Assembly: GCA_951406725.2 (NCBI GenBank)
Contig: OX597814.1
Location: forward strand, 31,062,001 to 31,126,000
From: Octopus vulgaris
Taxonomy: Eukaryota
Direction of reading: 5' to 3'
DNA length: 64,000 nt
Notes under the pieces: model-generated
Seen by the model: the letters and a program-made list of their open reading frames with translations, nothing else
Database searches by the model: none
What the model was told of the DNA's origin: nothing
Translations under genes and position numbers: made by a program
In this document: one piece after another, positions 7,181 through 57,626 of the stretch
Layout of the letters: every line of letters begins with the position of its first letter
How positions within the stretch are numbered: the first letter of the stretch is position 1

Positions 7181-7423
7181 ATACGTGTATTCGTGTGTAT
7201 GAGACTTTGGTTCTGTTGTTGCCTGCCTTTATATTATTGCTTCAATTACGTTATGCAGACACACATGCACATTATGCACATACACACTCACATACAGTCA
7301 TGTACATATATTCACCCGAACGCTATGTTATATATATATATATATATATAACGTAATTGTAGCAATAATATGAAGGCAGGCAACAACAGAACCAAAATCT
7401 CATATACACACGAATACACGTAT
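7181..7423. repeat. Inverted repeat (fold-back), ~75-bp arms
   Basis: 7181-7254 (atacgtgtattcgtgtgtatgagactttggttctgttgttgcctgcc...ttacgttat) is the near reverse complement of 7348-7423. Confidence 0.92.
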
Positions 7424-7440
7424 TCAAATTACATACATAT

Positions 7441-7588
7441 AGGCGCTGGAGTGGCTGTGTGGTAAGTAGCTTGCTTACCAACCATATGGTTCCGGGCATC
7501 TTGGGCAAGTGACTTCTACTATAGCCTCGGGTCGACCAAAGCCTTGTGAGTGGATTGGGTAGACGGAAAGTGAAAGAAGCCCATCGTA

Positions 7589-7659
<71 letters not shown>

Positions 7660-7887
7660 ACGTGTATGTTTGTGTGTCTGTGTTTGTCCCCCCAACATCG
7701 CTTGACAACTGATGCTGCTGTGTTTACGTTGCCATCACTTAACGGTTCGGCAAAAGAGACCGATAGAATAAGTACTGGGCTTACAAAGAATAAGTCCCGG
7801 AGTCGATTTGCTCGACGAAAGGTGGTGCTCCAGCATGGCCGCAGTCAAATGACTGAAACAAGTAAAAGAGTAAAAAGAGTAAGAGTA
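7441..7887 (+). mobile_element. tRNA-derived CORE-like SINE, family A, with internal (TA)n(TG)n microsatellite
   Basis: Head AGGCGCTGGAGTGGCTGTGTGGTAAG with a truncated B-box region, CORE-like CTTGGGCAAGT and tail GACTGAAACAAGTAAAAGAG; more than 10 similar copies in the window. Confidence 0.92.
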
Positions 7888-8289
7888 TACATTGCACATA
7901 TATCTTTGTCTCCGTGAATACGTTCGCGTGTGCAGGCTTATGAGTGTCTGTGTGCAATATTTTAAGATAAATTAATATATATACATCTATATATCTATCT
8001 ACCTGTCTGTCTATCTGTATATCTATATACATATCTTTATATTTTGCTCAACTGATATTTGCCCATCTGAATGTCTGTTTACCTCTCTGTCAGTCTCTAT
8101 GTATACGTGCATATGTTTATGTGTATGTGTGTATGTATATATATATAAATATGTATGTGTGTGTGTGCATATATATAAATATGTATTTCTGTGTATGTGA
8201 GTGTATGTGTGTGTATGCGTGCACTCGTGCTTATATGTTGATATGTATATATAATTAATAGTGACAGAAGCAGTATTAATATCAAATGT

Positions 8290-8755
8290 TAGTTTTTTTA
8301 TCCCCATTTAATAGTGGATGTAATGTTAGAACACAGAATACTGTGATATTTCCCAAGAGAGACCTCACAAATGGACTTGTGGTGCATATAAACACTTATG
8401 TTTATATCGCTATGGGAAGATAATCATCCGCCATCACCACTGTATCTACCAGATCATGTGATTTCGGCGTTCCTTGGCTAGCCCATTTGTAATAAAAGTG
8501 CTTCATTAGGTACTGAGATTCTATGTATATCGCTAGTGGAGGAATCACTGCTACCTTTAGCTTTTTGGTACGAAAGATGTACGAAAACACTTGATCTGGT
8601 AGTCCCTGCGGAGATGGAGGATGATAACCTCCCACTAGCGATATAAACACAATTGCATATATGCTCTGAAAATCCATATGAGAGGTTTTCCCATGGTAAT
8701 TATCGCAATATATACTGTGTTCTAACCCCCCCTTTGAAGTGGGGATAAATATAAC
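8290..8755. mobile_element. Old fold-back element (~170-bp diverged arms) with a degenerate hammerhead motif
   Basis: 8290-8460 aligns with the reverse complement of 8587-8755 (tatcccca, gttagaacacag, gtttatatcgcta, ctaccagatca). Minus strand 8513-8447 reads tac-CTAATGA-agca...cgcc-GAAA-tcacatga-TC-tggta. Confidence 0.65.
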
Positions 8756-8843
8756 CTTACGTGTGTGTGCGTATATGTATATATATATATGCATGTGTGT
8801 GTGTGTGAGCGTCTGTGCGTATATATATATATGTATATATATA

Positions 8844-8925
<82 letters not shown>

Positions 8926-9026
8926 AATTAGTAAATTATTTACTAACTTGTGTATTTTTCCCTCACGGGCTACTTTTTACTGGAAGGCAATACTTTGTAT
9001 TGCATTACTGATATATATATATATAC

Positions 9027-9738
9027 TCAACTAATAAGGGTGAGAAAATTGGATACTAATTTAATAGCACCATCCATTTAACACCAAGTGGCTTAGTGCA
9101 TAAAAACCAGGAGTACAATAAATATTATACGTAAATATAAGAGAGTGACCACCATGTGGTCGACTCTAGCACTAAAAATAGATCCGCTGGTTTCAGCCAC
9201 GAAGAATTGTTTCCGATGAAACTTAGCACAACTATTAGCGTAAACGAACAGGACAAATAAAAATAATAAAAATGCAGATTAATTCAGGACAATTGTTTCG
9301 CTATTAATAAATTATGTAATTTTACTCACATAACGTATCTGTAGCTCCTCGGCTGAATTTGTCTAGAATACAATTTACTCAACCGCATGCCAGATTTTAC
9401 CATAACGATAAACACACATGCGGTTCAGTCGATTGCATTCGCCGTTATAATTCAAGTGCCCCCGCCAAAGTCCACCAACATTTACGGAAACAGGTACTAC
9501 ATCAAAAATTAAATGCAGTATAATTACAATCAACTAATAAGGGGGAGAACATTGGATACTAATTTAATAGCACCATCAATTTAACACCAAATGGCTTAGT
9601 GCATAAAAACCAGGAATACAATAAATTTTATACGTAAATATAAGAGAGTGACCACCATGTGGTCGACTAAAAATAGATCCGCTGGTTTCCGCCACGAAGA
9701 ATTGTTTCCGATGAAAGTTAGCACAACTATTAGCGTAA
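9027..9738 (-). mobile_element. Non-autonomous Penelope-terminus/retrozyme-like element with ~210-bp direct repeats
   Basis: 9027-9243 is nearly identical to 9530-9738 (8-nt indel, a few SNPs); a hammerhead lies in the unique spacer; TA-rich tracts on both sides. Confidence 0.8.
9281..9359 (-). ncRNA. Type I hammerhead ribozyme motif (U4C core variant)
   Basis: Minus strand: aattcag-CCGAGGA-gcta[38 nt]tagc-GAAA-caattg-TC-ctgaatt; 7-bp stem I, 4-bp stem II, palindromic stem III, GUC site. Confidence 0.8.
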
Positions 9739-9779
9739 TATATACTCTTTATATATACATCTATATATCTATCTATATA

Positions 9780-10135
9780 TACTTTTTTTATTGTTTTACT
9801 TCTTTCAGCCATATGACTGCGGCCATGCTGGAGCACTGTCGAACAAATCCACTGCAGTATTTATTCTTTGGAAACCTAGTACTTTCGCTATCAGTCTCTT
9901 TCGTCACACCGCTAAGTTACAGGCACGTAAACACACCAACATCGGTTGTCAAGTGATGGTGGGGGACAAACGCAGACATAATTACATATATATATATATA
10001 TATGCGACTGGCTTCTTTCAGTTTCCGTCTACCAAATCCACCGAGAAGGCTTTTTGATCAGCCCGAGGCTAAAGTAGAAGATACTTGCCCAATGTGCTAC
10101 GTAATGAGACGGTAACCAAAACCATGTGGTTGGGA
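9780..10135 (-). mobile_element. SINE family A (head-truncated)
   Basis: Reverse-complement match to 7441-7887 (gactgcggccatgctggagcac, ttccgtctaccaaatccac). Confidence 0.88.
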
Positions 10136-16270: not shown

Positions 16271-16275
<5 letters not shown>

Positions 16276-16495
16276 ATTGGCAGGGAAAGACTGCTAGGTA
16301 GTCGGCCGTATGCTAGAAATAGATCATCAACGATCAAATAATTCTGTTTTTTATATAAATTTTCATCTGTCCTGCCCGCCAAATTTGGTTCTGGTGTTCG
16401 CTGAATTTTTTCCTCTAGAGAATTTTCTTTGTAGTTTGATCGTTGATGATCTATTTCTAGCATACGGCCTAGCAGTCTTGCCCTGCCAATATACA
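16271..16495. repeat. Inverted repeat, ~61-68-bp arms
   Basis: 16271-16338 versus 16435-16495 (ggccgtatgctagaaatagatcatcaacgatcaaa / tttgatcgttgatgatctatttctagcatacggcc). Confidence 0.93.
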
Positions 16496-16699
16496 CATAT
16501 ATTAGAATGTTCTCTGACTTCTCAGATTTTTTGTATGCTAGACTACTGGTTTTAAATTGATATTAAAATTAATATTAATTTATCTCCCTCATTATTTATA
16601 TATATACACATTTAGAAGGTTGAAAAGGAACACAAGAGTTGATGTATATGGAAAAATGTCACGGTAGAAAATGTTAAAATAATTTTATGAAAAACATTT

Positions 16700-16735
16700 C
16701 AGTACCAGTTTCAGCCATTGAGACTTTTTCAACTG
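16700..16735 (-). ncRNA. Minimal type I hammerhead motif, U3-A8 variant
   Basis: Minus strand: cag-TTGAAAA-agtc-tcaat-ggct-GAAA-ctgg-TA-ctg; ~90-nt tail ending at a TA-rich tract near 16600. Confidence 0.62.
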
Positions 16736-16810
16736 TAAGTATGGAAAACAAGTAAATTTGGGAAAAATTAAAAGAAAAGTTTTTAAAAAGAATATTTGCA
16801 TAGTATTCAA

Positions 16811-16980
16811 ATATAAGGGGCATTTTCCTTGTTTCTGCCTGTGTCTGTCTCTCTTGTTTACTCTTGTGAGAAATGCGTGGCTTTGGAGAGTCTTAACTCT
16901 TCCTTCTAGCAAACAGGTTCATATTAAGAGTAAACAAGAGAGACAGAAACAGGCAGAAACAAGGCAAAGGCCCCTTGTAT
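16811..16980. repeat. Inverted repeat, 55-bp arms, loop copied from the 15821-16123 locus
   Basis: 16811-16865 versus 16926-16980; the loop aaatgcgtggctttggagagtcttaactcttccttctagcaaacaggttcatatt matches the pre-SINE sequence at 15821. Confidence 0.92.
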
Positions 16981-18541
16981 CTCTTCTAGCATTATCTATT
17001 ACCTCAAATTTTGCAATTCTTTATATGTTGATGAGTCTTAGCGTCTACGCTATATCCGCCTCCAAAAATATACCACCGTCATCTGTCATTTTCGTACTTA
17101 CAACCACTCCGCTGAACATCTCACTGTCTTCGACTTGACCTTGCACCACAAGACTTCGTCAATGCTACATCTCTCTTCGAAATCATGTATCGGTTGGACT
17201 TAACACCTCATTCTTGTAATAGTTTCACTTTCATTCTCCCTTTATTTTATTTTTTTACTTATTTTTCAATATATTTATTTTTCATCATAATTTCCTTTTA
17301 ATTTAATTAAAATTAATTATTTCTATTTTGTTACGTAATCTTTAAAATTTAATTTTTATTTAAAATCTTTTAAAATTCTTTTACTTTTTTATTCCTTTAC
17401 TTGTTTCAGTCATTTAGACTGCAGTCATGCTGGAGCACCGCCTTAAATCTTAAACATTTTTCTGTAATTTAATTTTTTGAATTAAAATGTAAGTTTTTCA
17501 ATTACCTTTTAAAATTAATTTTAAAATCATTTAAAAATTTTTCTTAAATTTTTTATATTTAAAATATTTCTTTCAATTTTAAACTTTAAATCTTTGCTAT
17601 TTAAAAAAAAGTTTATTTTTATAAATGAAAAAAAATATTGTTAGTTTGGCTTCCACACACTCATATACATAACGTACACCCCCACCACATACTACATACA
17701 CATCTACCGCATATACGCACACGTTTCTATATCCTAACTTGTACATTCTGGGCCCAAGGCAAGATAGTACATACAAGATTATGCCCTTACTGATGTTTAC
17801 TTGTCGGCACATCGAACCTCTCACCTTATTGAACCAACTATATATATTGTAATGGAAATAAATTTGTTCTTGTATGGAATAGTGCCGTGCCTCTGTGTGT
17901 GAGTTTTGAGTGGAATTTCACCGTATCTTTTATCCTCTATGTTTGTTTCAATTGGCAATGTTCTTTCCCCAGTCTATCACACTCACTCTTACTAAATTGG
18001 TTATTGGTGGCAGATGAAGGAAGTTTTTTCTATTGTTTTTTTTTTTCCAAATTCTTTTGACATTTTAAAAACTGTGATAACAGTATGTTTAAACATGGTG
18101 TACCCCAGGTGGACAGCAGTCACACGGGAGACAAGTATGATGACAAGTTAAGGTGAGGAGGATTTGGAAGTTAGACATTTATATTATAGCATGAAGATTT
18201 ACAAAAAAATACGCATTTAATATATCTTTTTCCTATATACACTTTTTTGCATAAAGTTTGTAGCCCCAATATTTATAAATTACGCGCAATTGTTCTGAAG
18301 GGAAAATTTGGCTGTTACAAGTAGACTGGGGAATGAATAAGTAAAAATCATCTCATTGACTTGCATACTTGACTCAATTAGACCTCTATGCCCGAGAGTT
18401 CCTATTTTTGATTTTAACCCAATTCAATTAATTTTCAATGTGCCATGGTGAAATATATTTATAATTCTATCTTTGTAGTTACAGCTCTGTTTTTCAGGTT
18501 TTGTTCCTCTTTTCTAACATTCATTTCTCACCATAAACTCA

Positions 18542-21592: not shown

Positions 21593-21999
21593 ATTTTCAT
21601 CGTTCTGTGCACAATCAAGATCTTGTGCAACTGAAAACTGAGTACCCTTTTGGACGGGTGGAAGTAGTTTTTGACTCAAACTTGGCAGACAAGCGTCTCG
21701 TACCCAAAACTTCAGTGATAATGGACTGAACTGAAACGAAACTAATCTTAGCTAACATTGAGAAGTGGATCATTGGAGTTTGAAAGTAAAGCATGGAAAA
21801 CAATTAAATTGTGGAAAAGTTAAATGAAATGATTTTTTTAAATATCTCCATAGTTTTCAAATGCAAATGGCATTTTCCGTTTTTCTCTCTGTCTTTATCT
21901 CTCTTTTACTCGCGTGAATTCTAGCTGGTAGTGGTATTTAATATAAATTCGTGTTTTTGATTGTTTAAGCAACAGTAGTAATTGAGAAAGGAGGCAGCA

Positions 22000-22055
22000 A
22001 AGAAGAAGAAGAAGAAGAAGAAGAAGAAGAAGAAGAAGAAGAAGAAGAAGAAGAA
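22000..22055. repeat. (AAG)n repeat
   Basis: Directly visible. Confidence 0.97.
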
Positions 22056-22269
22056 AGAAAAATGCGGAAGTGGTACGACAGTAGCAGAAGGTTGGTGGAA
22101 TCCTCTTAAATGGTCAAGTGATATAAAAGTGAACCGTTGTGATTGTAATAGTAGTGATTGGAATTGTTCTAAATAATTTCATGAATAGTGACTGTACTGA
22201 ATATATATCGTTTTTAATATTTGCGTGGATATTATTCTAAGGCCCTTGTAATAGTGTCATTTGTGGTGG

Positions 22270-23905
22270 ACGCATTCAAAAGGGGTTTCTATTTTGGGAT
22301 AAAGTATGACTCTTTACTAATGCGTTAACACTAGGTTGCATCGTCCTTGAATTGATAGGGGGGAAATTCTGAAGCTGGGTTCGCAAATGTCGATGAGTTC
22401 GCTGAATGCTATTTTTTTTTCTGTATGATCCGAATTTTGATCTGGAATCTATGCAGAACCATCCTTTGACGTAGACTGTTTTTGGTTTGGCCTATGTATT
22501 GCTCTTGACACCGAAAGCATTTTAGTGTGTATATCAGGTTCTCCGAAGCACATGTTAAGCTGCTTTTGACTGTGAAACGTTGTCTCTGTTTGAAGGAGAA
22601 CTCTGATCCCTCAATTAAATTGACGCATATCCCACATTTGGGGCTTCCGCATTTTTTTACTGACGGCTTCAGTGTTGTCGAGTGTATTCGAGCTTGTGTT
22701 AGGAGACTTTTCATAGATTTGGGCTATCTTTTGCTCTTTATGATGGTGTGCATTTCGAGGATTAAATTCGTTCTGTGGTTCCTTTTTTGTAGGGTAATGT
22801 TCTGGAGGATGGTGTCGAAGGCTTCATTGTGAAGAGGGTTGTTTGTGGAAATGTATGGTAGGGCTTTTGGTTGTAAATCCTTCTTCAATTTGGGATGTCT
22901 GAGTTCGTGGTAGTTGAACTGTAGGACACGTAGAAAGCATATATCAGTTAGTGATGATGGGTAGTTCCTGGTGATGAGTGTATCTTTTAGTTCATATAGT
23001 CGTGTGTCCCTGGTGCTTGTATTAGAAAGTATAGTACAGATCCTTTTTGCCAGGTTGAAAGGCATATTCATTCTGGTGTATCTGGGATGGCAGGAGTTGA
23101 ACGGTAAATATTGCTTGGAGTCCGTGGGCTTATAGTATATATCTGTTTCTATTTCGTTGTTAGATTTCTTAATGAGGATGTTGAGAAATGGAAGGTTTAA
23201 CATGAATTTTAGATTTCTCATTATTTTCTGCTGACTGTAGTGTTGGCCCTTTTAATAATATGTTCTGTCTTCTAATATGGATAGTACAAGAGTTATATAG
23301 TATACCGTGTCCATTAAGACAACTGCACTCCCTTTATCATCCTTTTGATTGTTAATGTTTTGTCTTCTTTTAATTTGTTCAGCTCAGCCCATTCTTTTTT
23401 ACTGAAGTTTGGCCTGTGTTTTTGTTTGTGTATATGTTGATATGGGTAATTCGAGATGTCTTCACAGAAATGATCAAGAGTTTTGTTCTTACTTTTGAAG
23501 GGGTGTAGTTACTCCTATTTCGGACTAACGATTCATCCTCGTATTTGTCGTATAGCTCCTCAGCGAGTTGTAATTTTCTACAGAATTCCGCGACGTCTTC
23601 TTTCATTTCGTTGTAATTGAGGCGTTGGGGATGGGTGTAAGCTTGAGCCCTCTGGAAAGTACGTTGATTTGGGTTGCTTTCTAGGTCTCTGCGAGTTAGA
23701 TTGATGATTTTTATCACTTTGGCTCCTCCTGTCTGTTTGGTGCTATCTCGTGTCTCTGTGTTTGCGTATTGGCTTTAAAAACTGATTGAGGTATTTGGGA
23801 CAGTAGCTGTTTTGTTGTTGTTCCTTGTTGTTGTGGAGTGCCCTGTTGTGATGTATGGTGCTTGTTCTTGAAAAGGGTATTGAAAGGTGTGTTCCTATAT
23901 CCCAT
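22270..23905 (-). pseudogene. Penelope-like element (PLE) remnant: N-terminal region, RT thumb and GIY-YIG; RT core deleted
   Basis: DKGSAVVLMD (PLE/TERT-like N-terminal motif); LPFLNILIKK...TDIYYKPTDSKQYLPFNSCHP (RT C-terminus/thumb); CGSPKCGIC...CASENLIYTLKCFRCQEQYIGQTKNSLRQRMVLH (GIY-YIG); several frameshifts. Confidence 0.9.
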
Positions 23906-24528
23906 GTTCGGATGTGGTGCTTATATGAATCGGTACAATATTGAAAAATATATTATATATTCTCAGTAAGGTTCGTTCTGGCAAAATCGCTTTTTAAATG
24001 AGTTGTTTTCTAATTATAATTCTTTCTAGTATAGGCACAAGGTCTGACATTTTAGGGGAAGGGTCTAGTCGGTGATATCGAGCCCAGTATTCAAGTGTTT
24101 CTTATATTATCGTTCCCCGAAAGAATGTAATGTAAAGTTGATCTTGGCGGGATTTGAACTCAGAAGGTAAGGACGAATGAAATGCCGCTAAGCCTCTCGT
24201 CGGTTCGAGCTATCGCGTCTTCCAAATTGATACCTTGTTCTCTCGTTATAATGTGAGGGAATTACTTTACTTCCTCGTTAAAGTATCCGGTCTATTACTG
24301 AAATGTATATACTGTAGCAATGGAAATACGTGATACACACAGGCAGAACATTTCAATCCATTTACTCATTTGGAGAATATTTTTCCCGTTTGGTCTTATG
24401 GTAGAGGATGGCTGAAATAAATTCCCTCACTAAGCCAAAATAATATATTTTAATATTTCTTTAATTCTTTCTGTATATTTTTGTATTTAATTCTTTTGAT
24501 TGCTTTAGTCTTCCCGACAAAGGCTTTG

Positions 24529-24570
24529 CTGGAGCCTCACTTCAAGCATATATTTGAAGTGAGGCTCCAG
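24529..24570. repeat. Perfect 17-bp hairpin (duplicated at 29091-29132)
   Basis: ctggagcctcacttcaa-gcatatat-ttgaagtgaggctccag. Confidence 0.95.
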
Positions 24571-25359
24571 AACTTTATTTAAAAGCCAATCATATCATTA
24601 CATGCTTTCATCAAGTATACAAAATACACTCATCAACTAAGGTAACTTATGTTGAAATTTTAAAATTAATTAAATAATTAATTTAATATTAAAGGAAAAT
24701 CACATGCTTAAGCAAATTATAGATGCTGACAATGGCTTCAAGAAAGAATGTTATAAAAGATGCAGTAAAAGATAAACCCATATCTCCAAGTTGATGCGTT
24801 GATGCAGTAACAACTGTGCGATTAATATCGATGGAATGTCAGTGGACATTGTAGCTTAAAGCACACCACATAATATGCTTGTCAAAATATATTTCATGGT
24901 CGTGTACTTTTAGCATAAGTCTTGCTTGAGAGGGAAATCTTAACACCAATTACTTATTGGGTGACACTATTGTATTGCACAGATTAATGAACTGTTGATC
25001 AACAGGACGTTGCAACAACAGTAAACATGCAAATCTGTAAAAGCCTAAACAAAATCTTTTTCACTACTTAATTATATGCTTTTATGTTGTAGTCTGTAAA
25101 ATGCAAGGGGCAATTTAAACAACAGCATCTTTCATCAAAATGCTTTTCTTTTGTCAAAGTTTGAATCACAGGTGTTTGGATATATATATATATAAGTCAT
25201 TCTATACAAAATGGCTACAAACATAATAAATGTATATGTACGTGTGTGTATGTGTGTGTGCGTTTATTACACACACACACACACACACATCTTAAGATAG
25301 CAAGCTAGCAGAATCATTAGCATGCCGGGCAAAATGTTAGCTGTGGTATTTTTCCTCGA

Positions 25360-25947
25360 CAGAAATTTACTCAGGGAAGGACCGGTGCGCACCATCTGTA
25401 TGTTGAGTCTAGCATTGTCGGGTGCACACTAACCAGCTGTCCTATCAACAACATTAAAACGTGTTCTAGGGCCTATGTGGTATATGAAATAGTCTGCAGT
25501 AAATGTTGGGCATACTACATAGAGGGCACCAGCAGAAAATTGCACAACCGTATAAAAGAACACATGCGCACGGTCATTTCAATAATGAATCTCCTAAAGA
25601 AATGCTAAACCTAGAATTTTAAAGGTTTCACCAGAGCAACCCTACGCAACAGGGGCGATCTCAGAATCATGGAGGTCCTCTTTAAAAATAGAGGCCAGCC
25701 ACTCACAACAGGAAGGAACTACACAATGCAGACTGGTTGCTATAGCAACACCAGTCTGCGCATGTCACCCTCCTCCTTCCTCCCCCACTCATCTGAGCAA
25801 CGACTTTTCGAACTATCGCTTTTCCTAAATATCCTTAAGAAGGAGTCATTAACCGAAGTTTAAGCAAATTTATTTTGCTTTCTTTTCCTTTTATAGTTTA
25901 ATTTCTACCTTCTCGCATTGTTCCAGCCTTACACAACAAATCTCTTT

Positions 25948-25950
<3 letters not shown>
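25360..25950 (+). pseudogene. PLE 3' fragment, GIY-YIG endonuclease (duplicated at ~29921-30511)
   Basis: Frame from 25423: CTLTSCPINNIKTCSRAYVVYEIVCSKCWAYYIEGTSRKLHNRIKEHM (VVY...YIG..R.L..R..EH pattern); ends at (TA)n. Confidence 0.82.
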
Positions 25951-26021
<71 letters not shown>

Positions 26022-26025
<4 letters not shown>

Positions 26026-26208
26026 AGAATTCACGAAAAACACAAAAGACGAAGACTGGTGATGTAGAAAACAAACAGATGTATTAGTATAACGCTCGGA
26101 AATTGAAAAGAGTCTTTAACGTTTCGAGCCTACGCTCTTCCACATAAAGGAACACAGAAAGAAACAAGGAGATAAAAAAATGTGTGTAGTGGCTACCGAT
26201 CTATCATA
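26022..26208 (-). mobile_element. Short PLE-terminus-like element with degenerate hammerhead at 26114-26149 (copies at ~30541-30725 and 63818-64000)
   Basis: Minus strand: cttt-ATGTGGA-a-gagc-gtag-gctc-GAAA-cg-TT-aaag; the end abuts a long (TA)n. Confidence 0.7.
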
Positions 26209-26249
26209 TATAAGTGAGTTAAGTTAGAGGTTATAACAACCGTCTAAGC

Positions 26250-26731
26250 CAGGGATGGGGAAACCACTGCGAACCCTTTTTATTTTGCCCGCAGGCTGAT
26301 ATACTCACATGTACAAAATATAGTAAATTTTTCAATCATATAATTTACGCAATATTAGTATACCTATTTGCGACATAGATCGCGCTTCCACAACTGCTTA
26401 AAAGGCTCAGACCCGAACAGAAATCGTCCGATAATAACCATTTGAATAGAAATTTTGTTTTCATTATGAAACGCATATTGTTAGATTTTGCCACCCCTTG
26501 AGATACAACTACACTAGCTGAAAAGCAATGAATACCTCATAGGTAATATAAATGTTCTAAATTCAGTGGCGGAGTTAATGAAGATGTAACGCGTTAATTT
26601 AATGTGTTAAACTTATCTTTATTAATGTATATCGAATTATATAAGATATATACAAGGTTTACAGAGATCCGTCAGCGGGCCCTTTTCTTAGAAAACGTTT
26701 GCCCACCGCACTGAAAAGTTTCCCACCCCTG
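26250..26731. mobile_element. hAT (Buster-type) non-autonomous element (duplicated at 30769-31251)
   Basis: TIRs cagggatggggaaac / gtttcccacccctg; imperfect 8-bp TSD gtcTAagc / gtcTAtgg with central TA. Confidence 0.75.
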
Positions 26732-27493
26732 GTCTATGGGATACTTGTTTCAAAGGAATCCACCGGTAAGTTGAGATTATCTCTTTTTGTAATTAATTAA
26801 TAAATGATAATTGATGTAAAGAGATTTAAGAGATAGAACTTGTGATCCGCCCGCGGACCTTTTTCTTAGAAAATTTTTGCCCGCCGCACTGAAAAATTTT
26901 CCCATCTCTAGTCTAAGGAATACTTGTTTCCTTGAATCCACCGGTAGATTGAGATTCTGTTTTTTTCTTTTGTACTTAATTGATAAATGATAATTGATGT
27001 AAATCTATTGTTATTCATCAATTATATCTTCATTTTCTGCTTTCCTTATATGTATATATGTGTGTGTGTGGCTTTGTGTTTGTCCCCTACTACTGATTGA
27101 CAACCAGTGTTAGTGCGCTTGCGTCCGCGTATGTTAGTGGTTCGGCATAAGAACAATAGAATAATTACAAATTCAAGATATAAGAACTGAGGTCGATTTG
27201 TTCAACTAAACCATTCAACGCATTCCCAGAGGATAGGTGTAGTCCAGGAAATGAACACAGTAAAAGATTCTAAACAATAATGATTGCTGCCGTTCTGCAC
27301 CATACCTAACCCGATTGAACCAACATGGTGTCTCATATCTAATAAAGGTATAATGTATATAAGTGTATATTGACATGAATAAATATAACGCTTCTAACCG
27401 TTTAGATGATATATTTCTATCATTTTGCTTGTTTCTGTTATTAGGCTGCGACCATGCTGGGGTACCACCTTGAAGAATTTTGTATATATATAT

Positions 27494-27754: not shown

Positions 27755-32424
<4,670 letters not shown>

Positions 32425-35167: not shown

Positions 35168-35292
35168 TATGAAATTAAGTTAAATATCTAAGGAACAGGA
35201 AATCATGCAATGGACTATATTCTCTTACAGCTGTAAGCGCATGAAGTTGATTGCATAATATCCTGTTCCTTTGTCATTTATTTAATTTCATA
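35168..35292. repeat. Fold-back centred on cttacagctgtaag
   Basis: gaaattaagttaaatatctaaggaacaggaaatcatgcaat pairs imperfectly with attgcataatatcctgttcctttgtcatttatttaatttc. Confidence 0.8.
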
Positions 35293-37108: not shown

Positions 37109-37292
37109 TGTGTGAGTATGTATATGTATATATTTATATATATATGAGAGTGTATAACGATTTATACACTGAGAGAAGACCTTTGACAGGACTTCTTGCA
37201 AGCTAGAAAGGACAGTTAAACCCAAACAACGGAAGATAATTATTTAGGCTCGCTCTTAATTTCACTAGAGTGAACAAAATAGAAAATTAGTT

Positions 37293-37364
37293 AATCCCAT
37301 ACACGAATTTCGCTATTAATGCTCAAATAAATCAATTTGGCGTCCGTAGCTCATCAGTGGGATC
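37293..37364 (-). ncRNA. Type I hammerhead ribozyme motif with canonical core
   Basis: Minus strand: gatccca-CTGATGA-gcta[31 nt]tagc-GAAA-ttcgtg-TA-tgggatt; ~150-nt tail to a microsatellite at ~37143. Confidence 0.82.
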
Positions 37365-37409
37365 GTTAAAGAATGCATAATTATGTAGCTTTAATACGTA
37401 CCGAAAACA

Positions 37410-37569
37410 TGTCTTTTCGTCCCCGTAACTTGGCTGTTTTACAAAAGAGACCGATAGAATAAGTACTAGGCTTACAAAGAATAAATCCTTGGTTCGATCT
37501 AAACGATGTAAAGCGGTGGTCGAGCGTGGCCGCAGTCAAATGACTGAAACTAGTAAAAGGATAAAAGAA
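37410..37569 (+). mobile_element. Family A SINE 3' fragment
   Basis: aaaagagaccgatagaataagtactagg...gccgcagtcaaatgactgaaac. Confidence 0.85.
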
Positions 37570-40050: not shown

Positions 40051-40377
40051 TAATGTAAAGTATAGAAGCCATCTTAACATGGCTAAACACATAGGGGAGG
40101 GGTGTTACTGTAGCTCTATAGCCCCAGGAGATCGTCGTCTCCAGCTGGCTTTAGACACCATTTCAGTGCCCTTGAAGTATTTGCAAAGGGAGGCCATCCC
40201 TTTCTCGCAAGCCTGAGTGATACGCTCGACTAGTTTCGGCATTATTGTCCCTTATCAACGGGCGGTAACCACCGGGTAACACACCCTCCCCTATGTGGTT
40301 AGCCATATTAAAATGGCTTCTATACTTTACATTATCGAGCGATTACTGTTTACATCTCATTCTGAGATTTAATAATG

Positions 40378-40379
<2 letters not shown>
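40051..40379 (-). mobile_element. Fold-back mini-element with hammerhead (same family as 54683-55180)
   Basis: Arms 40051-40108 / 40276-40334; flanked by (TA)n on both sides. Confidence 0.85.
40223..40264 (-). ncRNA. Type I hammerhead motif, U3-A8 variant
   Basis: Minus strand: cgcccg-TTGATAA-ggga-caataa-tgcc-GAAA-ctag-TC-gagcg. Confidence 0.7.
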
Positions 40380-47186: not shown

Positions 47187-47375
47187 GGGTGTACCAAAAG
47201 TTGCGCACCATTGTGGTTTTTTAAAAGAATACACTCTTGTTAATTTCAAAAACACTTTATTGAAATTAATCGTAACAAATGCTCAAATTGGGCACCCTCT
47301 ACAATAAAACATGCAGAAAACAATATAATAAAATAAAATGCTTTAATTATTTTAAATGAAAACCGGAATGATGCG
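47183..47375 (-). mobile_element. Tc1-like transposon 3' end
   Basis: TA-CAGGGTG terminus; ACFIVEGAQFEHLL transposase C-terminus. Confidence 0.75.
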
Positions 47376-47384
47376 CGACTTCTG

Positions 47385-47661
47385 TGAACAGTTCTGATGT
47401 CGACAAGACCATTACCAAAGGCCCGCTTGATATTCCGTAGAGCTTTTGCGGCAGAGTGACCCTGTTTGTACTCATACGAGAAAATCACTCAACATAGTTT
47501 GGTTGTTATCATTTTCATAAGGTCTGTAATTACGAATTTTGTATTCCAATATTGTTGGGAAAGGAAAAGAATCAAGGTATACATAATTATGTTCTTTTTT
47601 TTAAAATAACTGAAATAACAAGTAATTAAAAATGCGACATTTCATATGAAACAACCTAATA
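47385..47661 (-). mobile_element. Mariner 5' fragment
   Basis: TATTAGGTTG terminus; IFSYEYKQGHSAAKALRNIKRAFGNGLVDIRTVHR HTH. Confidence 0.82.
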
Positions 47662-48887: not shown

Positions 48888-48900
48888 TATGTCTATATAT

Positions 48901-49164
48901 TAAAGTTTATTTGCCAACAGAATGTGGCGGTCCCATAAAGAACGATGTTACTGTTCTTTAAGCCGCAGGAAAACATCTTTCCCAGCTAGCTATCGACTCA
49001 CATTCTCATGTGAGGCTGGATATAGGAGCGATGACCTCCCTTGAAAACACTATACGGATACAGGCTGTGTGTCGATAGCCAGCTGGAAAAGATGTTTTCC
49101 TGGAGCTTAAACAGTAGCATTGTCCTGTATAGGATCGCCACATTCTGTTGGCAAATAAACTTTA
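48901..49164. repeat. Inverted repeat, ~100-bp arms, loop duplicated at 49311-49374
   Basis: taaagtttatttgccaacagaatgtggcg... versus ...cgccacattctgttggcaaataaacttta; ggagcgatgacctcccttgaaaaca occurs in the loop and again at 49330. Confidence 0.92.
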
Positions 49165-49392
49165 CTATTCGGTATTATTACCGTTTATATCGAGCAAAGA
49201 TTTTTAAAACAAATTTCATCTTTACGAGATGAGCGACTATGTGTCACTTAGTGTTTGCGAGTGGATAAGCTTTCATCAACAGCCATTAAATGTATCATGG
49301 TCTATGAGTATCATGTAAGGCTGGAGATGGGAGCGATGACCTCCCTTGAAAACATTTTACGGACACAGACTGAGAGATTTAAAGCAATTTGT

Positions 49393-51475: not shown

Positions 51476-52927
51476 GAAAAGTGTTTACTAGTGTCAAGAA
51501 ACTACTTAAAAGTTTTCGTTCAACACTATTAAACGAAATTTTTCAATAGCTATTTGAATATGAATTATTGTTGATCATACAAACCACCAACACACAGATA
51601 CAGAATTCACATCAAAAGCAGAGAAACTTCACCGTGCCGCCATTCATCAAATGTCGAATCACTAATGTACGAAACCGGTGTTACCTGTACCTACTCAGAT
51701 TAGCGTAGGAAACAACATATACATGACAGATGGATCTTTCAAGCTACGGCGCATAAATCACAGCGTCAATATGTCCTGCAGACATATTAAGAAGTATAGC
51801 AACACCATTTTGCGTAATTGCATCTTGCGGAAGAAATAGAACAGCGTTAGTTATTTCATTTATACAGGGTGGAGAAGTTTATTTCAATGAACAGTATTAA
51901 AATATCACCTGCATGTGTCTCCACTTCAGCTAGTTACTATTCAAATTTTGGAATCGCGTTTTGTCATCTGATAAAGAAGGTATGGGCAAAACGCCAAAAC
52001 CATTCGTTAGCATATCACTTATATTAACTCACAAATTTATGCAAACTCAGCATTTAAAGTTTCTCTTACTCTCACATGGATCCTTTCACATCAGTCTGGA
52101 TATAGTTGACTTAAATTAAGAAAATGGAGAAATACATCTAAATCAAATATCAATTACCAGATAATACTCAATCACATACTTTATTAAACCACCACATAAG
52201 AAACTATAGGGTTAAACATAAAAAAGTAGAGCAAAACAGTGTACATAAAGGAGTATACATAAAGTGTACATAAAAGAGTAATGTTATACAATAAGTAGAA
52301 TATATATAAGAGAATATAAATATAAGTAAATATAAATATAAATATAGATTACATCTTACAGCTGTTTCGGTCATGTAGATAAGTATGTCTAATTTTACTC
52401 ATATTAGCCTTTTATGGTAGGTCAATATGTAGGTCAATAAGCTCATGTTCATAAACCAATCTTTATTCAATCCTCTTCTTTCTTCCATTTCCCTTAATAT
52501 CTGTTAAATTAGTAGCCCTATTTTGAAATTTCTATTTATATATTAGAGATAAGCTAAAATATTTACTATCCAGATAACTCAAACGAAGCAGTTTACGAAA
52601 AGAAGGAGTTATACACCGTGCATGGTGTTTACCGTGGCAGGAAACAGACGACTACACGCGTGTGTAGGAAGCGTCTAAAGATCTTATGATTTATTACGGA
52701 AAATTCCAGCAGAACCTGGTGAATCTCCGAATAAAAATATTACCAATCCTAGATATCATTATAACCATACGCACGCACGCATACACACACATATACACAG
52801 ACGCTCATCTTTATGTGTGTGCGCGTGTGTTTATGTGTGTAAACGTGTGAATGTGAGTGAATCTGTACATATAAATATATATGCGTTTGTATATAAATAA
52901 TAACATTATGAAATGGCAATGAAGACT

Positions 52928-53153
52928 ACTCTTTTACTCTTTTACTTGTTTCAGTCATTTGACTGCGGCCATGCTTGAGCACCGCCTTTAATCGAGCAAC
53001 TCGACCCCGGGACCTATTCTTTTTGTAAGCCCAGTACTTATTCTATCGGTCTCTTTTTGCCGAACCGCTAAGTAACGGGGACATAAACACCCCAGCATCG
53101 GTTGTCAAGCAATGCTAGGGGGACAAACACAGACGCATAAACACACACACGCG

Positions 53154-53187
<34 letters not shown>

Positions 53188-53350
53188 TACGACATGCTTC
53201 TTTCAGTTTCCATCTACCAAATCCACTCACAAGGCATTGGTCGGCCCGAGGCTATAGCAGAAGACACTTGCCCAAGGTGTCACGCAGTGGGACTGAACCC
53301 AGAACCATGTGGTTGGTTAGCAAGCTACTTACCACACAGCCACTCCTGCG
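52928..53350 (-). mobile_element. Full-length family A SINE
   Basis: Complete reverse-complement copy. Confidence 0.95.
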
Positions 53351-53656
53351 ACTAGTTTTCTCTTTCCCACTCAGTAGAAATATGTGTACAATGACACATA
53401 CATAAGCTCACGCAAGGATGTACACATACAAACACACACACAGACATGCCTGCGCCAGAAGTAACTTAGATTGTCTGTTGAGGGATGCGGTGCCACGAAA
53501 TTTGAAGTATTGTCCCTTTTACCTAGTTTTACCTTCTCATATTGAGCTATGTAATCTATCGCTTCTCGGTGAATCAACATAAAAAGTGTGCGTGCATGTG
53601 ATTCCGAGTGTGCATATATATATATATAATTTAAAATTGAATAGAAGGTCTGAAAA

Positions 53657-53702
53657 CCACCTGATGAATGTCCTTAGAAGTGACAAGAAACAATTGTAGT
53701 GG
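53657..53702 (+). ncRNA. Type I hammerhead ribozyme motif with canonical core
   Basis: ccac-CTGATGA-a-tgtc-cttagaagt-gaca-a-GAAA-caattg-TA-gtgg; ~180-nt tail ends at (TA)n at 53883. Confidence 0.8.
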
Positions 53703-53878
53703 ATAACTTAATTTTATTTAATTTATATAAAATTTTTTATGTACTGGATTAAGTCTTTCTTTGTTTGATTTGCATAATAGTGGTTTTATCTCTAATTAAT
53801 ATTATATAATATTTTACTATAAAATTGGATTCAATCCTAAATCTGATTTTTCCCTGTAAATTTGGATTTATTCCCTAA

Positions 53879-53917
<39 letters not shown>

Positions 53918-53919
<2 letters not shown>

Positions 53920-54326
53920 TCTTTTACTCTTTTACTTGTTTCAGTCATTTGACTGCGGCCATGCTAGAGCACAGCCTTTAGTCGAGCAACTCGACCCCGG
54001 GACTTATTATTTGTAAGCCCAGTACTTATTCTATCAGTCTCTTTTGCCGAACCGCTAAGTGACGGGGACATCAACACACCAGCATCGGTTGTCATGCAAT
54101 GCTAGGGGGACAAACACAGACACACAAACATACACGCACACACACATATATATACATATATACGACGGGCTTCTTTCAGTTTCTGCCTACCAAATCCACT
54201 CACAAGGCTTTGATCGGCCCGAGGCTATAGTAGAAGACACTTGCCCAAGGTGCCACGCAGTGGGACTGAACCCGGAACCATGTGGTTGGTAAGCAAGCTA
54301 CTTACCACACAGCCACTCCTGCGCCT
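53918..54326 (-). mobile_element. Full-length family A SINE
   Basis: Complete reverse-complement copy. Confidence 0.95.
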
Positions 54327-54343
54327 ATATATGTATAAATTTA

Positions 54344-54614
54344 AAATAAGGGTGAGAAATTGGATATTAATTTAATTAAATTAACATCAATTTAACACCA
54401 GTGCTCTAGCATATAAAATCCGAAGGTTCAGTAAGCTGTGTTATATACAAATGAGAGGGATGACGACTATGTGGACAACCCTTAACCAGAAGTAGATCCG
54501 CTAAGGTCTTACCACAAAGAAATGTTCTCAAGACACGTTTCTTAGTGGTAAGACCATACCGGATATACTTCTAGCATAAGGGTTGTCCACATAGTGGTCA
54601 TCCCTCTCATTTGT
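54344..54614. mobile_element. Fold-back element related to the 9027 family
   Basis: Starts aataagggtgagaaattggatattaatttaat like 9034; arms 54447-54525 / 54535-54614. Confidence 0.8.
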
Positions 54615-54682: not shown

Positions 54683-54684
<2 letters not shown>

Positions 54685-55180
54685 CATTATTAAATCTCAG
54701 AATGTGATTGAAACAGTAATCGCTCGATAATGTAAAGTATAGAAGCCATCTTAACATGGCTAACCACATAGGGGAGGGGTGTTACTGTAGCTTTATAGCC
54801 CCAGGAGATCGTCGTCTCCAGCTGGCTTTAGACACCATTTCAGTGCCCTTGAAGTATTTGCAAAGGGAGGCCATCCCTTCCTCACTTCGAAATCAGTGGC
54901 AGACGTCACTAGAAAAACTCTTATATATTTGCAAGGAGGCCTTCTCTTTCATCACGACCTGGTGGTTACCGCCCGTTCACAAGGGACAAAAATCCCGAAA
55001 CTAGTCCGAGCGTATCACTCAGGCTTGCGAGGAAGGGATGGCCTCCCTTTGCAAATACTTCAAGGGCAATGAAATGGTGTCTAAAGCCAGCCGGAGACGA
55101 CGATCTCCTGGGGCTATAAAGCTACAGTAACACCCCTCCCTATGTGGTTAGCCATGTTAAGATGGCTTCTATACTTTATA
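54683..55180 (+). mobile_element. Fold-back mini-element, ~155-bp near-identical arms, hammerhead in the loop
   Basis: 54731-54885 versus 55027-55180; flanked by (TA)n. Confidence 0.9.
54970..55012 (+). ncRNA. Type I hammerhead motif, U3-A8 variant with G5C lesion
   Basis: cgcccg-TTCACAA-ggga-caaaaa-tccc-GAAA-ctag-TC-cgagcg. Confidence 0.65.
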
Positions 55181-55638
55181 TATATATAAGTTATATATGT
55201 GCATACTCATATGTGCACACTCACTCACATATATATCTTTGCACTGAAACCAAATCCTTGCTTTATAAACACTAGGCGTTTGATATTATTGTGATTCGAA
55301 TTAGTGGGTAGCTTCTAATTCATTCATAGTAATTTGAGTTATTTCGCATCAAACGTTAAATTGTTATGGTAAAACTAGCTATGGTGCACAATTGCGATAG
55401 AAATTGTAAAGTGTAAATAGAAAATTCTAGATAAAACCAGTTGTCTCCGTGCCAATGTGAAACAAAACTAACGCAGAAAGTCTTGCATATTTTGCTTTGA
55501 CATTAAATAGGTAAGAAAAGTAACATGTTTTCCTAGTAAACATGATAAATTTGTCTCAAATTCTGCCAGCGGCTTCGTTTGATATTAATTCTCAAACAGT
55601 TTGTGTTACATGTAAACATTTTTCTAGTACCTCTCCTC

Positions 55639-57280: not shown

Positions 57281-57626
57281 TCACTCCCGTATGATGGCTG
57301 CCCCCTCGTTATCGCGAATGGCCATTGCACGAAGCTTAACTGTTATTGGTGCTGTGATCGAATGTGACTTTTTAGCCCGGCTAAAGATTTACAATGACTT
57401 GTACAGAATTGGCAGCTAAAACCTCTACCGGCAAGAGCCGGCTGTAGTTGTAACTGGGCTGCATACCATTTAAGTCTTCCCGCCGAATTACACTCTCTTC
57501 CACATGCCTGACAGATATGAATAGTATGGTGTGTAACACCACCACCAGTGGCCAGGTTGTCACTAATCTATCTCGCTTCATGACTATGAAGATGCCTCTT
57601 GAGTTCAGCTTTACTGAGGCAGGGTC
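57281..57626 (-). pseudogene. RTE-like LINE 3' end with tandem C2H2 zinc fingers
   Basis: PCLSKAELKRHLHSH, ICQACGRECNSAGRLKW and FSCQFCTSHCKSLAGLKSHIRSQH* (stop at 57345-57343), then a short 3' UTR. Confidence 0.75.

Follow-up and report, generated by a model that had tools for sequence, protein, structure and literature searches.

Within a 64,000-nt stretch of Octopus vulgaris DNA (contig OX597814.1; termed the window herein), we analyzed a 712-bp insertion that lies between (TA)n-rich flanks and carries two direct repeats, a predicted hammerhead ribozyme, and several predicted RNA folds. Its features are as follows, with positions counted in the window.

9027 to 9738, minus strand: the whole insertion, 712 bp, running in the RNA sense from 9738 to 9027 and comprising ∼1.4 units of a 503-bp period
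9530 to 9738, minus strand: the 5′ repeat (copy B), truncated 44 nt before the expected second ribozyme cut site and carrying an 8-bp deletion
9445 to 9529, minus strand: a predicted structured domain at the inner junction, made up of a hairpin (9520 to 9495; P = 0.83 to 1.0) and a closing helix
9366 to 9440, minus strand: a 75-nt hairpin with a core of 9-bp arms (9381 to 9389 and 9417 to 9425)
9281 to 9359, minus strand: a predicted type I hammerhead with its cut between 9288 and 9287, the closing helix extending to ∼9365/9275
9244 to 9280, minus strand: a U-rich linker after the cut site, mostly unpaired and homologous to the start of the forward copy of a relative at 16.3 kb
9027 to 9243, minus strand: the 3′ repeat (copy A, pLTR-like), whose end at 9027 is the fixed terminus and putative distal start of reverse transcription and abuts (TA)n
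9019 to 9028, plus strand: the left copy of a candidate target-site duplication (TSD), of 8 bp, or of 10 bp with a 2-nt overlap into the element
9738 to 9747, plus strand: the right copy of the candidate TSD, overlapping the element by 1 nt and followed by a SINE at ∼9780 to 10133

A preliminary description of the locus had reported ∼210-bp direct repeats with a 503-bp period, and this holds: copies A (9027 to 9243) and B (9530 to 9738) are 92.6% identical over 217 columns (BLAST E value, 4e-88), and their starts lie 503 bp apart. They differ by eight substitutions and one 8-bp deletion, the latter in copy B. Six of the eight substitutions are transversions, in comparison to a ratio of ∼1:1 in SINE pairs (P = 0.17, not significant), and the derived changes, polarized with an outgroup, lean toward copy B (4:1 to 5:2; P = 0.22 to 0.45, not significant). 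The predicted fold of copy B is also weaker than that of copy A (−20.4 versus −31.5 and −16.3 versus −20.1 kcal/mol). Direct terminal repeats, of which the 5′ one is truncated, give the element a pLTR-like layout. Neither dimers or arrays of the 503-bp unit nor a second copy of 9529 to 9360 was found in the window, where the general repeat search was dominated by microsatellites. Terminal inverted repeats of the MITE/TIR type are missing from the element; self-comparison yielded the internal palindrome at 9366 to 9440 only.

Both flanks are rich in (TA)n, which makes the target AT-rich and microsatellite-like. A plausible TSD of 8 to 10 bp, with priming microhomology at the element ends, can be read from the flanking letters. 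The 10-mer occurs four times in 128 kb (the window, both strands), two of these being at the element ends, and its last three letters follow just 4 of the 236 (TA) runs in the window. Since the flanks are repetitive and most of the TSD letters belong to the microsatellite, support for the duplication is moderate. That one candidate TSD brackets all 712 bp implies a single insertion event. The SINE to the right is one of a SINE-like family with at least 11 loci, also found in (TA)n (e.g., 7423 to 7895, 9780 to 10133, 52927 to 53354, and 53917 to 54327); one copy directly adjoins the right end of the element, and another precedes a relative at 54.3 kb.

The spacer had been called non-coding, and we found nothing to contradict this. 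No PLE (Penelope-like element) protein match was found in the element among the 10 best tblastn rows obtained with 30 PLE proteins (relatives of another family), and none of the four of its open reading frames (ORFs) that were scanned reached the curated Pfam cut-off. The Pfam scan took 145 of the 180 complexity-filtered ORFs of the window, the 35 omitted coming mainly from SINEs, MITE arms, and a duplicated block. An ORF for reverse transcriptase (RT) and GIY-YIG is absent between the repeats by six-frame translation, Pfam, and tblastn with the 30 PLE proteins. No tRNA genes were found, and prokaryotic genomes, searched for the exact pattern of the shared terminus, gave 0 loci. The element is thus non-coding, with a GC content of <50% (0.34 for positions 8001 to 10000) and a candidate TSD of >4 bp, as are non-LTR retrozymes.

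The predicted folding of the unit is biased toward the minus strand: against 40 shuffles per strand, its circular fold has a z score of −5.4 there and of −2.5 on the plus strand. The two possible monomers, folded as minus-strand circles, reach z scores of −5.4 and −4.4 with 64 to 66% of the nucleotides paired (40 shuffles each), and are thus strongly self-paired. The same bias is seen for 9530 to 9455 (z = −3.3 on the minus strand versus −0.5 on the plus strand) and for the 75-nt hairpin (−6.0 versus −4.1). The 9-bp arms of this hairpin had been noted before; they are exact reverse complements and form the core of the longer hairpin 9440 to 9366. The helix closing the junction domain (9529 to 9522 with 9452 to 9445) has a P of ∼0.9 in local folding and of 0 in global folding. 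Together, the minus-strand ribozyme and the strand-biased fold indicate that the element reads from 9738 to 9027; in the RNA sense, it starts with the truncated copy B and continues through two folded domains, the ribozyme, and the U-rich linker to copy A. The strand bias, the candidate TSD, and a change in the ribozyme core (below) go beyond the preliminary description.

A variant hammerhead motif between the repeats

The spacer had also been described as holding a hammerhead with a 7-bp stem I; the motif was confirmed, and it lies on the minus strand, which had not been stated. Helix I has 7 bp (9359 to 9353 with 9287 to 9281) and is followed by the core at 9352 to 9346, in which C takes the place of U4 (plus-strand position 9351). 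Helix II has 4 bp (9345 to 9342 with 9303 to 9300; G10.1-C11.1 and three further pairs) and continues into a long extension. Helix III (9296 to 9289) is palindromic, consisting of one pair past A15.1-U16.1 and closed by a palindromic tetraloop. The cut site lies 261 nt upstream of the terminus, so that, as in PLEs, the sense strand carries a type I hammerhead close to its 3′ end. No second hammerhead was found within 9027 to 9738; the single ribozyme lies between the repeats and not in them.

A hammerhead descriptor, which permits one core mismatch and was written after the motif had been seen, matched none of 4,000 dinucleotide shuffles of the 712 nt when helix I was set to at least 7 bp; with helix I of at least 5 and at least 3 bp, it matched 1 and 29 of 4,000, respectively. 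In the 64-kb window it gave one match at ≥7 bp, whereas 30 block shuffles averaged 0.03 matches. Since the descriptor demands that the 15.2-16.2 pair be Watson-Crick and allows no additional base ahead of GAAA, it misses two further motifs at 37.3 and 53.7 kb, which came from nhmmer and from a covariance model, respectively. A minimal hammerhead with a U3-A8 core variant, predicted in a TA-flanked segment at 16735 to 16700 (minus strand), is weak, since the relaxed descriptor that found it gave three matches against 0.7 expected. Rfam showed no hammerhead among the 150 matches listed of 236 for the whole window, and 3 weak unrelated matches without a hammerhead for 851 nt around the element; because the motif is a variant, this result is uninformative.

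The U4C change is reported to reduce hammerhead activity considerably in vitro (PMC3088659). The canonical core of the 37.3-kb ribozyme indicates that U4C in the ribozyme at 9281 to 9359 is derived. In silico, two copies of the ribozyme pair via helix III at −49.8 versus −44.6 kcal/mol. Directly before helix I is a stretch resembling a 3′ splice site, which may be compared with that of Drosophila virilis Penelope (PMC4209133). In addition, a stretch of nine bases that spans the GAAA of the ribozyme and the loop of helix III is found again, without change, at the apex of a hairpin in both repeats (9213 to 9205 and 9708 to 9700, minus strand). This recurrence is not kept in the relatives and is probably due to chance, but it could serve as a decoy partner for helix III.

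Relatives and other PLE-type sequences in the window

The following loci in the window carry related termini or predicted hammerheads, and the last holds a PLE with an ORF.

54335 to 54614, minus strand: relative 1, a forward repeat copy (to ∼54530) and an inverted copy (54537 to 54614), without a ribozyme
16278 to 16599, plus strand: relative 2, a forward copy (16338 to 16599; 262 nt) and a near-perfect inverted copy (∼16275 to 16338)
37293 to 37364, minus strand: a related hammerhead whose core is canonical and whose helix II base is identical to that of the target, with helix I altered by three compensatory changes
53657 to 53702, plus strand: a predicted hammerhead with a canonical core, a helix I of 4 bp, additional bases next to helix II, and the palindromic helix III of the target
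21800 to 23750, minus strand: a decayed Neptune-type PLE outside the element, with an ORF at ∼23711 to 22271, a zinc finger, GIY-YIG, and a 3′ untranslated region (UTR) to ∼21800

Relative 1 matches the repeat over 54345 to 54526 with 72% identity (BLAST E value, 3e-13), and relative 2 was recovered with an E value of 6.7e-8 by a profile from which it had been left out. The target, 54.3-kb, and 16.3-kb insertions end within ∼5 to 10 nt of a common terminus beside (TA)n, which bears out the earlier remark that an element at 54344 begins near the same terminus. By eye, the 54.3-kb terminus extends like the first 12 nt of the spacer; we set this likeness aside as uninformative, since (TA)n flanks give the same letters. 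In both close relatives, an inverted copy begins ∼105 nt inside the terminus, and in relative 1 the forward and inverted copies form a 168-nt hairpin. Inverted 5′ copies together with a tail at one end, a trait of PLEs, are thus present in 2 of the 2 close relatives and absent from the target copy.

The forward copy of relative 2 starts at the equivalent of 9283, ∼4 nt after the cut position, and its similarity to the U-rich linker was equaled in 3 of 1,000 shuffles and in 1 of 1,346 grid windows, the latter being the linker itself. Its length of 262 nt compares with a distance of 261 nt between the cut site and the terminus of the target, an agreement that points to linear cleaved templates.

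The target and 37.3-kb ribozymes have 33 of 34 cells paired over 17 pairs, 4 of which are altered on both sides. Slid controls pair at 21 to 39%, yet 30 of 500 shuffles reach the same covariation score, with n = 2 and a structure derived from the same two sequences. The sequence downstream of the 37.3-kb ribozyme is not significantly similar to the target (542 of 1,000 shuffles as good), nor is that downstream of the 53.7-kb ribozyme (421 of 500); because of this, we do not count the two segments as family members beyond the ribozyme. The former hammerhead is intact within a segment (37146 to 37410, minus strand) that lies between a truncated SINE and (TA)n, continues across the ribozyme, and ends ∼155 nt past the cut site; the latter belongs to a TA-flanked segment (53627 to 53884, plus strand) with a terminus that by eye resembles that of the 16.3-kb relative. 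In all, four predicted hammerhead-bearing PLE ends were counted in 64 kb.

The ORF of the Neptune-type PLE has lost most of its RT core by deletion and carries many stops and frameshifts. It is 40 to 56% identical to RT/GIY-YIG proteins (30 matches among 254 candidates) and retains a DKG motif as well as, ahead of the GIY-YIG domain, a CX4CX2C finger of the type that marks Neptune/Nematis (PMC8557442). Its 3′ UTR of ∼610 nt, which includes a (TTC)n expansion, matches 16610 to 17010 (0 of 200 shuffles as good). The target unit is not significantly similar to this UTR (199 of 200 shuffles as good) or to its relative at 16.6 to 17.0 kb (62 of 200), a comparison of terminal sequences for which the window offers just one ORF-bearing PLE. 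No cognate autonomous partner of the element was found in the 64-kb window; the decayed RT/GIY-YIG PLE shows that the class of machinery is present there. At 16278 to 17000, two PLE-type ends lie tail-to-tail in one (TA)n, namely relative 2 on the plus strand and the Neptune-UTR relative (∼17000 to 16613) on the minus strand, the latter with a long hairpin and a weak hammerhead 89 nt from the terminus.

Further observations concern the surroundings. A fragment that cuts the Neptune PLE at ∼21780 is presumably mariner. A ∼4.5-kb tandem duplication (23193 to 27482 and 27755 to 32002; 99 to 100% identity), which is either a recent event or an assembly artifact, starts where the Neptune ORF has its internal deletion. 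A young MITE-like element lies in (TA)n at 54684 to 55181; its inverted arms of 154 bp are 97% identical, and a rearranged second copy stands at 40053 to 40378. Palindromic or inverted-repeat elements at 8325 to 8726, 35168 to 35292, 48897 to 49168, and 24529 to 24570 are unrelated to the target by BLAST. Pfam also reported a fragment of a Mos1-type transposase helix-turn-helix (HTH) at 47249 to 47488 (minus strand; E value, 7.6e-8) and, under the cut-off, a zinc-finger-like stretch at 57346 to 57567 (minus strand; E value, 3.9e-6) that is possibly a host exon.

Origin of the insertion and of its 503-nt unit

Two groups of known elements resemble the target. Animal non-LTR retrozymes share with it a non-coding, low-GC, tandem-type unit, a type I hammerhead with a one-pair palindromic helix III, a TSD of >4 bp, and co-occurrence with PLEs; the target differs in having 1.4 units, one ribozyme with U4C, and a long extended helix II in place of the canonical loop 2. 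Animal retrozymes of 170 to 400 nt are expressed as circles (Cervera and de la Peña 2020, PMC7229834); the 503-nt unit is longer than these validated circles but within the 51 to 972 bp spanned by predicted retrozyme families (Li et al. 2026, bioRxiv 10.64898/2026.07.22.740005). The EN+ PLE pLTR tandems (Penelope/Poseidon and Neptune; PMC3846280, PMC8557442, PMC11167929, and PMC4209133) likewise have direct terminal repeats of ∼200 bp, a hammerhead upstream of a fixed terminus, an AT-rich target, and a TSD of 8 to 10 bp, and share with the relatives of the target the inverted 5′ copies and the tail at one end only. In rotifer PLEs, pLTRs of 193 to 218 bp, TSDs of 8 to 10 bp, an inverted pLTR, and an optional tail at one end only are reported (Arkhipova et al. 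2013, PMC3846280). PLE pLTRs are described as carrying type I ribozymes with a long helix II, a palindromic helix III, and dimer-dependent cleavage (Cervera and de la Peña 2014, PMC4209133). In contrast to EN+ PLEs, the target has no ORF, its cut site lies 261 nt from the terminus, and the apparent start sites of its family lie ∼105 nt apart, versus a tail of 30 to 40 bp in described PLEs; the start codon in the ribozyme of Poseidon_Ac is not evident in it.

Further classes were compared. Chlamys elements such as MRC1 (PMC8557442) are also ORF-less PLE derivatives with pLTRs and head-to-tail insertions, but they are algal and described as mostly lacking hammerheads, and similarity of the 3′ end to an autonomous partner has been demonstrated for them and not for the target. 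Plant LTR retrozymes likewise have a short non-coding body between direct repeats and a hammerhead, but theirs is of type III and present in both LTRs, with PBS/PPT and 4-bp TSDs; the single type I motif of the target, outside the repeats, sets it apart from this class. A Helentron/DINE-1 origin was considered and provisionally set aside on account of the ribozyme and the TSD.

The preliminary description offered two origins, a retrozyme or a PLE template jump. A hammerhead-bearing, PLE-related, more-than-unit insertion is indeed what we find, but the two options are not exhaustive. They also largely merge, since animal retrozymes have been argued to be non-autonomous derivatives of PLE pLTRs (bioRxiv 10.64898/2026.07.22.740005). 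An active retrozyme in the strict sense, for which the same preprint calls for two consecutive complete ribozyme-bearing units, the element is not, having one ribozyme with U4C. The further argument that a fixed 3′ end favors template jumping does not stand: a purified PLE begins reverse transcription inside a tandem transcript, at two fixed positions with a spacing equal to the genomic tail (Frangieh et al. 2024, PMC11167929), and because of this internal initiation, a jump predicts a shared terminus no more than do a circle and a linear tandem RNA. According to the same study, the purified PLE nicks both strands of AT-rich DNA, and initiation requires RNA downstream of the start sites, while ribozyme cleavage is dispensable in vitro.

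We hold it to be very probable that the element was inserted by PLE machinery from a hammerhead-bearing terminal region. The reading that we favor for its origin, tentatively and with slightly more doubt than confidence, is a non-autonomous mini-PLE, reverse transcribed in trans on a linear tandem RNA to which the 9529/9530 junction is native. Its layout would be pLTR, short structured body, hammerhead, and pLTR, and it would probably be of Neptune type; animal non-LTR retrozymes are nowadays equated with elements of this class. The source, a tandem or partial tandem, would have been transcribed on the minus strand, the strand on which the ribozyme lies. An autonomous PLE RT-endonuclease would have bound this RNA in trans and nicked the (TA)n into which the element is inserted, and reverse transcription would have begun at a fixed internal site corresponding to the terminus seen at 9027 and 9530. 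Copying would have run 503 nt through an uncleaved hammerhead and then across 9529/9530, since this boundary would be native to the linear tandem RNA, and have halted 209 nt on, 44 nt before the upstream cut site, probably because the template ended there or had been cut back. Repair would have left the candidate duplication of 8 to 10 bp, and the copy may later have decayed by U4C and the 8-bp deletion. A single ribozyme does not suffice for the copy to release a unit-length RNA by itself.

For this linear-template origin speak the halt of copy B 44 nt before the next cut site and that of relative 2 at it; the predicted fold starting at 9529, located where RT-binding RNA would be expected, also favors a native junction, whereas the P of 0 for the junction-closing helix in the global folding model argues against it. 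Also in favor of this origin are the minus-strand ribozyme and strand-biased fold, the structure kept in the 37.3-kb ribozyme, the terminus beside (TA)n common to three diverged insertions, the 10-mer at both ends, the likeness to rotifer PLEs, the internal initiation seen in vitro, the 262 nt of relative 2 against 261 nt in the target, and the PLE fossil in the window; on the other side are the lack in the window of a second copy of 9529 to 9360 and of a Neptune UTR significantly similar to the unit, the TSD letters that belong to (TA)n, the non-significant excess of derived changes in copy B, and a covariation that draws on two sequences. The domain start, as predicted by local folding, weighs at the same time against a rather unlikely but substantial rival, that a 5′-truncated autonomous Neptune-type PLE copy, with 503 nt of 3′ UTR/pLTR, was joined by a template jump to a second, probably cleaved RNA at a junction unique to this locus. 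We give this rival its weight because 503 non-coding nt, given a local Neptune UTR of ∼610 nt, also fit a plain 5′-truncated copy and because template switches are frequent, inverted second copies being found in both close relatives. The norm among PLEs is 5′ truncation with partial tandems (Craig et al. 2021, PMC8557442), and inverted 5′ copies, microsatellite targets, and non-autonomous forms are also described there. A different source RNA might give the weaker fold of copy B, and an AT-rich junction could mimic a target, but the junction has no clean (TA)n, the asymmetry between copies A and B is not significant, and the second copies of the relatives are inverted and start proximally, whereas copy B is direct and has the full terminus.

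More doubtful still is a true retrozyme, in which PLE machinery, priming internally, would have reverse transcribed ∼1.4 times around a circular RNA of 503 nt. Internal priming would reconcile the fixed end with a circular template, circles have already been proposed as a hypothesis for more-than-unit PLE insertions (PMC4209133), and axolotl retrozymes with a one-pair palindromic helix III do form circles (PMC7229834). The circular fold of the minus-strand monomer (z = −5.4; 66% paired) leaves the ribozyme helices free, and the in silico helix III pairing of two ribozymes also speaks for this origin. Against it stand the single ribozyme, the lack of a dimer or array in the window, and a length above that of validated circles, though inside the predicted range; copy B and the 16.3-kb forward copy end short of and at the cut site, respectively, which a circle does not require, and copies drawn from one circle would be identical at the start, yet the changes lean, not significantly, to copy B. 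A full-length pLTR-ORF-pLTR element stripped of its ORF by one local internal deletion, with the breakpoint inside 9529 to 9360, would have the canonical PLE architecture, and the Neptune fossil did lose most of its RT core in this way. It is nevertheless improbable, as both breakpoints would fall within ∼170 nt of non-coding sequence with no ORF remnant among the 10 best tblastn rows for 30 PLE proteins, and the folded domains on either side are intact. Least credible is that members of the family inserted one after the other at a single (TA)n, or that local DNA was duplicated later: (TA)n is the target of the family, two PLE ends do lie tail-to-tail at ∼16600, and the junction is AT-rich, but one candidate TSD brackets the whole 712 bp, the start of the repeat coincides exactly with the family terminus, and the junction does not reproduce the target cleanly.

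The target is filed neither as an active retrozyme, having one ribozyme with an altered core, nor as an autonomous PLE, having no ORF; by analogy, it would operate like an animal non-LTR retrozyme or a PLE pLTR tandem. Recently active Penelope-like families are reported for Octopus vulgaris (PMC13282606), in the main text of which the words ribozyme and hammerhead are absent, and a literature search on retrozymes and cephalopods returned only a Naiad/Chlamys PLE paper. The single locus matters little in itself, as hammerhead-bearing PLE ends are common in the window and the link to retrozymes has already been argued in print. In Craig et al. (PMC8557442), the in vivo role of PLE hammerheads is stated to be unclear. 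A joint proposal, which we regard as rather speculative and on balance unlikely in its entirety, is that hammerhead-cleaved RNA is a real in vivo template of PLEs, that two internal start sites lie ∼105 nt apart, with the inner one seeding the inverted copies, and that the unit is an ORF-less PLE parasite with a native junction, in which case it might be the first family of retrozyme type to be reported from a cephalopod. The cleaved-template part of this proposal rests on the 16.3-kb copy that starts ∼4 nt from the cut site and on copy B, whose end falls 44 nt short of that site, at the base of a hairpin. The value of these insertions lies in the family, whose 5′ ends may mark the use of cleaved templates in vivo.
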